From assembly GCA_947054455.1 (NCBI GenBank), contig CAMRWN010000001.1:74966-138965 (forward strand): a stretch of DNA of 64,000 bases, read 5' to 3'. The notes under the pieces were generated by a model. It had not been told where the DNA came from and did not search any database. It saw only the letters and a list, made by a program, of their open reading frames with translations. Shown here one piece after another: positions 48,248-48,282 of this stretch (its first letter is position 1; every line of letters starts with the position of its first letter). A program made the position numbers and the translations under genes. Source of the DNA: an uncultured Alphaproteobacteria bacterium (GTDB taxonomy: Bacteria > Pseudomonadota > Alphaproteobacteria > Rs-D84).

Positions 48248-48282
48248 AACTATATCACATTTTGCGCCGATGTGATATAATT
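48248..48282. promoter_or_regulatory. Back-to-back divergent TGTGATATA(A/G)T extended -10 promoters forming a palindrome (TATATCACAT-N9-ATGTGATATA) between virB6 paralogues A and B
   Basis: It runs from AACTATATCACAT at 48248-48260 to ATGTGATATAATT at 48270-48282. The minus-side TATAGT lies 8 nt from A's ATG, and the plus-side TATAAT lies 31 nt from B's TTG. Confidence 0.55.

Follow-up and report, generated by a model that had tools for sequence, protein, structure and literature searches.

The 72-bp gap between two divergent open reading frames, 46954-48240 (-) and 48313-49581 (+), in the genome of an uncultured alphaproteobacterium contains an inverted repeat that can be read in two ways: as the operator of a dimeric regulator, or as two promoters that point away from each other. 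We conclude, with a probability of roughly 0.8, that the palindrome is a by-product of two sigma-70-type extended -10 promoters lying back to back in this gap. Two near-consensus copies of one motif, placed in opposite orientation, automatically form an inverted repeat; the repeat is non-random because it consists of two promoter copies, and not because symmetry itself has been selected. We refer to the gene on the minus strand as gene A, to those on the plus strand as genes B-E, and to their promoters as P_A and P_B. "The window" is the whole 64,000-nucleotide stretch of DNA that was analysed.

Direct reading and a repeat finder gave the same perfect 10-nt arms, TATATCACAT at 48251-48260 and ATGTGATATA at 48270-48279, on either side of the 9-nt spacer tttgcgccg (48261-48269). 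In the orientation of gene A, the left arm is the reverse complement of the P_B extended -10 element. Outward extension to 48244-48260 and 48270-48286 gives 15 matches in 17 positions, and the local sequence reads ...aacTATATCACATtttgcgccgATGTGATATAattg... The original prediction had described a near-perfect inverted repeat at 48248-48282 with the arrangement TCACA-N11-TGTGA. The repeat is real and that interval encloses the whole of it; direct reading also bears out the arrangement, with TCACA at 48255-48259 and TGTGA at 48271-48275. The pattern occurs a single time in the 64 kb when up to three mismatches are allowed, and was found in none of 100 dinucleotide-preserving shuffles.

An independent scan of the region for promoter consensus sequences returned exactly two promoters, P_A and P_B, and no other promoter-like site within the 72-bp gap. 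On each strand the scan reported ATCACA, 16 nt, and then TATAAT (+) or TATAGT (-), with the TG present. The P_B extended -10 element, TGTG-A-TATAAT (the form TRTGnTATAAT), lies at 48271-48281 (+), with TG at 48273-48274 and TATAAT at 48276-48281, scores 10 of 12 hexamer matches plus the TG, and is placed to serve genes B-E, 31 nt before the TTG at 48313. The P_A element, TGTG-A-TATAGT, lies at 48249-48259 (-), with TG at 48257-48256 and TATAGT at 48254-48249, scores 9 of 12 plus the TG, and is placed to serve gene A, 8 nt before the ATG at 48240. Both strands thus carry the features that define an extended -10 promoter: TG at -15/-14, A at position 2 of the hexamer and T at position 6. The putative -35 elements are weak. 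For P_B the hexamer ATCACA at 48254-48259 (+) matches TTGACA at four of six positions and stands 16 bp upstream of TATAAT; for P_A the hexamer at 48271-48276 (-) stands 16 bp upstream of TATAGT. Both lack the main -35 bases, T-35 and G-33, and each is the reverse complement of the TGTGAT of the opposite promoter. The spacing from -35-like to -10 hexamer is 16 bp in the window and 17 bp in most orthologues.

Several lines of evidence indicate that the motif is used throughout this genome and is not peculiar to the palindrome. Perfect TGnTATAAT occurs nine times in the window, and eight of these copies are intergenic, though intergenic DNA makes up only 11.7% of the window; all eight are directed at a gene start on the same strand, 8-93 nt downstream. 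The distance from hexamer to ATG is 8 nt for the starts at 35974 (-), 46885 (-) and 48240 (-), 10 nt at 58619 (-), 6 nt at 26905 (-) and 9 nt at 33655 (+). The sequence TGTGATATA is present in five exact copies, and its one-mismatch variants number 19, compared to an expectation of 9.0 ± 2.6; seen in context, these sites are TRTGnTATAAT elements close upstream of ORF starts. The genes that carry the motif are mutually unrelated (among them a Na/H exchanger and several unnamed proteins), close variants are found at RmuC and gyrA, and a TG-T-TATTAT variant ends 11 nt ahead of tRNA-Glu. The 11-mer of P_B recurs in identical form at unrelated promoters with their TG at 35991 (-), 42615 (+) and 58638 (-). 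The intergenic position of the motif and its occurrence before unrelated genes indicate that it is the general housekeeping promoter of the organism.

The likeness of the two arms can be measured against this background. P_A and P_B agree at 15 of 25 nt. The corresponding figures for P_B and seven unrelated promoters of the window are 10-16, and for the five of these that share TGATATAAT they are 14-16. P_B is as similar to unrelated promoters as it is to P_A, so the likeness of the arms is that of any two promoters in this genome.

The TRTG extension is known from Gram-positive bacteria, where such promoters were described by their "-16 region", and from E. coli, with galP1 as an example of an extended -10 promoter; promoters of this kind can function despite a poor -35 (PMC2613000). 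The promoters described here resemble galP1 and the TRTG promoters in the TG at -15/-14, the T and R at -17/-16, a consensus or near-consensus -10 hexamer, a -35 with only 3-4 matches of six, the proximity of the motif to gene starts and its recurrence across the genome. They differ from them in that the motif is unusually near consensus, its flanks are nearly invariant across the genus, and it often stands 6-10 nt before the ATG, a position that predicts leaderless mRNAs.

Some other copies of the motif lie in surroundings of their own interest. A perfect TGTGATATAAT at 42613-42623 (+) is 93 nt from the first possible start of a 504-aa ORF (42717-44231), in which a signal-peptide-like segment (MIKRLLILFCILFAPAARSAEM) begins only at residue 81; the product contains repeats and weakly matches a model of a CPR pilus-system protein. 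A low-GC island at 33000-37000 (33-43% GC, versus about 53% elsewhere), possibly a variable or acquired segment, contains two TGnTATAAT promoters that are among the strongest, with TG at 35991 (-) and 36242 (+), as well as tRNA-Gln, a gene for a trypsin-like peptidase and several unnamed ORFs. Between the inositol monophosphatase and XRE genes, about 520 nt (44820-45340, -) hold no convincing gene; they carry TATGATATAGGATATAAT (near 45264-45247) and TGGGATATAAT (45044-45034), both TGnTATAAT-like promoters, and in addition to several hairpins there is one with a T-run, near 44866-44842, that resembles a terminator. This region gave no Rfam match at E <= 1 and is not conserved in the 80 loci described below; it may encode small RNAs specific to this genome.

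To follow the site across species, one genome per species was scanned with gene A, which identified 236 relatives, and the best 80 loci were retained, each with a flank of 4 kb that leaves gene E outside. Together with the window these make 81 sequences. The source genomes of the 80 loci are from gut and rumen and carry the labels Candidatus Enterousia, uncultured Alphaproteobacteria or Rickettsiales, with protein identities of 63-73%; because the loci are related, the counts that follow are not independent events. Candidatus Enterousia is placed in the order Rs-D84, and its genomes are smaller than 1 Mb (PMC12306168); the window is from a gut alphaproteobacterium that resembles it, likewise with a genome below 1 Mb. 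Synteny of genes B, C and D, with A pointing away from them, is kept in 78-80 of the 80 loci, and on the other side A is followed by a 169-aa gene, L31 and inositol monophosphatase in 79-80 of them.

The divergent promoter pair was found in all 80 of these best loci, and 78 of them fit a single consensus, which in the orientation of gene A is TTTTCAATTATATCACATTT-N4-CAAAAT-R-TG-R-TATA-M-TTAAAA-N2-4-ATG. The original prediction of back-to-back extended -10 elements for the two transcription units is therefore supported: they are copies of the general motif, correctly placed, and both are conserved in the orthologous loci. The -10 hexamers are separated by 22 bp in 74 of the 81 sequences, by 23 bp in four, by 21 bp in the window only, and by 26 bp in two outgroups. 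The spacer between the arms, 10 nt long in orthologues, is shortened by 1 nt only in the window, and its four central positions are free across 74 species. The B-side arm reads ATTATATCACA in 76 of the 81 sequences. The A-side arm takes the forms TATGA (39), TGTGA (25), TATGG (11) and TGTGG (6), followed by a hexamer that is TATACT, TATAAT or TATAGT, so that the orthologous A-side element can be written T[A/G]TG[A/G]TATA[C/A/G]T. This variation is precisely the freedom that TRTGnTATAnT allows.

The greater variation on the A side could also be taken to mean that there is a single working promoter, the other arm being fortuitous or decayed and its gene transcribed from elsewhere. The bases that matter argue against this: TG, A-11 and T-7 are retained by both arms in 81 of 81 sequences. 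Each arm also keeps its distance from its own start codon. On the A side it is 8 nt in 47 of the 81 sequences, 7 nt in 20, and within 6-10 nt in 78; on the B side about 30 nt separate the -10 hexamer of the orthologues from an ATG that is preceded by GAGAGA. Since the 72-bp gap offers no alternative promoter-like site either, we regard the one-promoter explanation as very doubtful indeed.

In 72 distinct sequences, the palindrome pair C:R is mismatched in 43 and the pair T:M in 56, and covariation between the arms is no higher than in shuffles. The mismatched pairs and the lack of covariation indicate selection for a promoter in each arm but not for symmetry. The same data bear on the possibility that the repeat works as a nucleic-acid structure, either as a cruciform in the DNA or as a terminator or attenuator hairpin in the RNA. 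As single-stranded DNA the repeat does fold, at -6.5 kcal/mol with z = -3.65. This is a modest fold, however, and its pairing is not kept across species: two of 14 pairs are mismatched in most of them, with compensatory changes not above the shuffled level. An AT-rich stem with a loop of 9-10 nt is poorly suited to cruciform extrusion, the interval 47900-48700 has no terminator-like site, and neither predicted transcript holds both arms, because the genes diverge from the site. We rejected the hairpin and the cruciform, which we consider exceedingly improbable. An Rfam scan of the window found three tRNAs only, with no match at the palindrome.

The conservation of the site is extensive, and a comparison promoter helps to interpret it. 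The promoter CCGAATCTGATATAATTC, which lies outside any inverted repeat and precedes the 169-aa gene (46376-46885) with 8 nt to its ATG, is nearly invariant in the 80 loci, outgroups included. Invariance over about 20 nt around a -10 element is accordingly normal for this clade, since an unpaired promoter is conserved equally well. At the divergent site the flanks beyond the core are conserved as well: TTT and CAAAA on the inside, TGAAAAGATAA and TTAAAA on the outside. These flanks and the 22-bp gap exceed the minimal needs of a -10 element, and their conservation may owe something to a protein besides RNA polymerase.

The control promoter belongs to a 68-nt gap after the stop of gene A (46886-46953) that is conserved genus-wide (at about 5285-5355 in the 80 loci). 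In order, it comprises AAAATCAAGYNCTTTATTTAAC, a variable stretch of 4-6 nt, CCCCCTTTTTT, a second variable stretch of 6 nt and the invariant promoter CCGAATCTGATATAATTC. A run of C is followed here by a run of T, but for lack of an obvious G-rich partner the two do not make a classical terminator. The 169-aa protein had no family match.

In the two outgroups, L053 (3890-4003) and L060 (3930-4003), which are the most divergent loci, divergent TATG[A/G]TATAAT promoters are again present, at the 26-bp hexamer gap. Both genomes are labelled Rickettsiales bacterium. Gene A of L053 has a 51-nt leader with AGAAGGA ahead of a GTG start, and in L060 both A and B appear to be leaderless.

An operator for a dimeric regulator, of CRP/FNR type, XRE type or another, that covers both -10 elements and controls both directions was the other reading offered by the original prediction. 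Its appeal is evident from the 10-mer arms that are perfect in this genome, from the distance between arms that is fixed in 74 of 81 sequences, and from whole-arm centres about 20 bp apart, a distance of about two helical turns that would be within reach of a dimer or tetramer. The conserved flanks beyond the -10 core are also in its favor, and the window encodes helix-turn-helix regulators of the XRE (44463-44813), MerR (38719-39096) and GapR (20476-20724) types. Against it, the arms do not covary, an unpaired promoter is conserved equally, and the spacing is shifted by 4 bp in the outgroups. Only 25 of 81 sequences have TGTGA on both arms; in 50 of 81 the A side has TATG instead, as the TRTGn rule permits. 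A second everted pair was found neither in the window nor in any of the 80 loci, and the window has no second copy of the 25-nt P_B consensus. With one site per locus and one in 64 kb, there is no sign of a regulon. A regulator reading the whole arms nevertheless retains a small chance because of the conserved flanks and the fixed phasing; taken as a whole, we judge the operator quite improbable.

Further points tell against the CRP/FNR version of the operator. A CRP site is TGTGA-N6-TCACA and an FNR-type site is TTGAT-N4-ATCAA. The palindrome shares the pentamers TGTGA and TCACA with the CRP operator, but they are in everted order, are separated by N11 in the window and N12 in orthologues instead of N6, and one of the two is not conserved; their centres, 16-17 bp apart, fall on nearly opposite faces of the helix. 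Among about 55 ORFs of the window scanned against Pfam, none has a cNMP-binding or Crp-type HTH domain. We rejected the CRP/FNR operator on half-site order, spacing and conservation. The XRE protein at 44463-44813, which had been named as a candidate regulator, is also rejected as the cognate protein: its gene is not syntenic, with a match in one of the 80 loci that is weak and on the opposite strand.

The explanation that we prefer, two overlapping divergent promoters, would work as follows. P_B (TGTGATATAAT, +) would transcribe the B-E row from a predicted start at 48287-48289, placed by its spacing from the -10 hexamer, with a leader of about 24-26 nt to the TTG at 48313. P_A (TGTGATATAGT, -) would transcribe gene A from a predicted start at 48240-48243, 6-9 nt past the -10 hexamer, as a leaderless or nearly leaderless mRNA with 0-3 nt ahead of the ATG. 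In 78 of 81 sequences the -10 hexamer and the ATG are 6-10 nt apart, too short a distance to accommodate a Shine-Dalgarno sequence, and the mRNA of gene A is predicted to be leaderless for this reason. The usual distance from a -10 hexamer to the transcription start is 6-7 nt; as the 8 nt found here is slightly more, a leader of 1-2 nt is as likely as a truly leaderless message. The N-terminus of the gene A protein, MNxLKKFW, is conserved from ATG 48240.

The TGTGAT of each promoter might in addition serve as a weak -35 element (ATCACA) for the other, 16-17 bp away. RNA polymerase has a footprint of about -55 to +20 (PMC2613000), and with predicted starts about 46-47 bp apart we infer that two polymerases would exclude each other. 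Any coupling of the two directions would then come from competition between polymerases and not from a dedicated regulator.

Overlapping divergent promoters are familiar from E. coli and its elements, as in bioA/bioBFCD and tetA/tetR, in which the pair is controlled by a repressor (BirA, TetR) bound to an operator palindrome. The P_A/P_B site resembles these systems in its outward firing from a short intergenic region, its overlapping footprints and the exclusive occupancy that they would impose. It differs from them in its symmetry, which belongs to the promoter elements themselves, and in giving no support to a repressor operator. A closer comparison is with the bidirectional promoters of Warman and Grainger, which have starts 7-25 bp apart (mostly 18) and overlapping, shared -10 elements (bioRxiv 10.1101/2020.01.31.928960; PMC12825309). 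In both cases the symmetry results from elements on opposite strands, and polymerase can bind either way. Here, unlike in that class, there are two distinct -10 hexamers with 21-22 bp between them, and what is shared is the TGTGAT of each promoter with the -35-like ATCACA of the other; with predicted starts about 46 bp apart we rejected the assignment to that class. For the E. coli bidirectional promoters, competition is expected to matter only at high activity (PMC12825309). A candidate for a true Warman-type promoter, unlike the P_A/P_B site, was seen elsewhere in the window, in the divergent gap between pyruvate kinase (-) and gapR (+) at 20380-20475, where TATGGTATATCATA contains overlapping TG-n--10-like elements on both strands.

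The original prediction labelled the genes on either side as VirB6 paralogues. Gene A (46954-48240, -) encodes a 428-aa polytopic membrane protein of an unnamed family, possibly VirB6-like; the codon before its ATG (48240) is an in-frame GTG. Gene A has about 900 unnamed homologues, and many among the matches listed are also 428 aa long, with 64-73% identity over the orthologous loci. Genes B (48313-49581, with a TTG start and a signal-peptide-like N-terminus), C (49582-50802), D (50799-52229) and E (52226-53527), all on the plus strand, encode membrane proteins, abut or overlap one another, and are presumed to be an operon (48313-53527). The A-E proteins range from 406 to 476 aa, all have multiple hydrophobic segments, and they look like distant paralogues of one another; hhalign comparisons of family profiles gave probabilities of 96.8% for A-C, 70% for A-D, 47% for A-B and 41% for C-D.

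At the level of sequence, the searches for VirB6 were uniformly negative. Pfam and NCBIfam gave no match for A-E, a profile of A found nothing relevant among PDB sequences, and when the family profiles of A, B, C and D were aligned with R388 TrwI by hhalign, the probabilities were about 1% or less. Structure offers a hint. An AlphaFold model of A, of modest quality (pLDDT 63.9, pTM 0.57), was compared to the PDB with Foldseek, and the matches of high probability (0.96-1.00) were R388 TrwI/VirB6 chains, four of the top six; these matches are marginal, with E-values of 0.015-0.11 and target-normalised TM-scores of 0.39-0.48. Homologues of VirB8 (PF04335), VirB9/CagX (PF03524) and VirB10/TrbI (PF03743) lie in a row at 6668-11384 (+), 37 kb from the five-gene membrane cluster, a scattered layout like that of the Rickettsiales rvh T4SS. 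The virB8 ORF probably starts at ATG 6686, 9 nt past a TATAAT hexamer, and is a candidate for leaderless translation. The marginal fold matches and the virB8-10 homologues make "VirB6-like" a plausible but unproven description of A-E.

A more ambitious reading can be given for the same site. The 22-bp phasing and the mutual -35-like hexamers might constitute a switch that, by polymerase competition and free of any regulator, sets or anticorrelates the ratio of A to B-E in a Rickettsiales-style T4SS, kept across Enterousia and possibly assisted by a protein that reads the A/T flanks. We consider this unlikely. If polymerase competition did set the subunit ratios, the site would be a natural case of regulator-free divergent control; nothing in the data requires such control.

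Most likely, the site is a conserved, ordinary pair of overlapping divergent extended -10 promoters. The implication for reduced genomes with near-consensus promoters is that short divergent gaps will routinely give rise to striking palindromes, which should not be taken for operators. For the uncultured gut genus Candidatus Enterousia, the analysis supplies a promoter model, TRTGnTATAAT, often 6-10 nt before the ATG, and from this position leaderless mRNAs are predicted to be frequent. It also delineates a genus-wide cluster of five genes for unnamed membrane proteins, possibly VirB6-like, that accompanies scattered virB8-10 genes.
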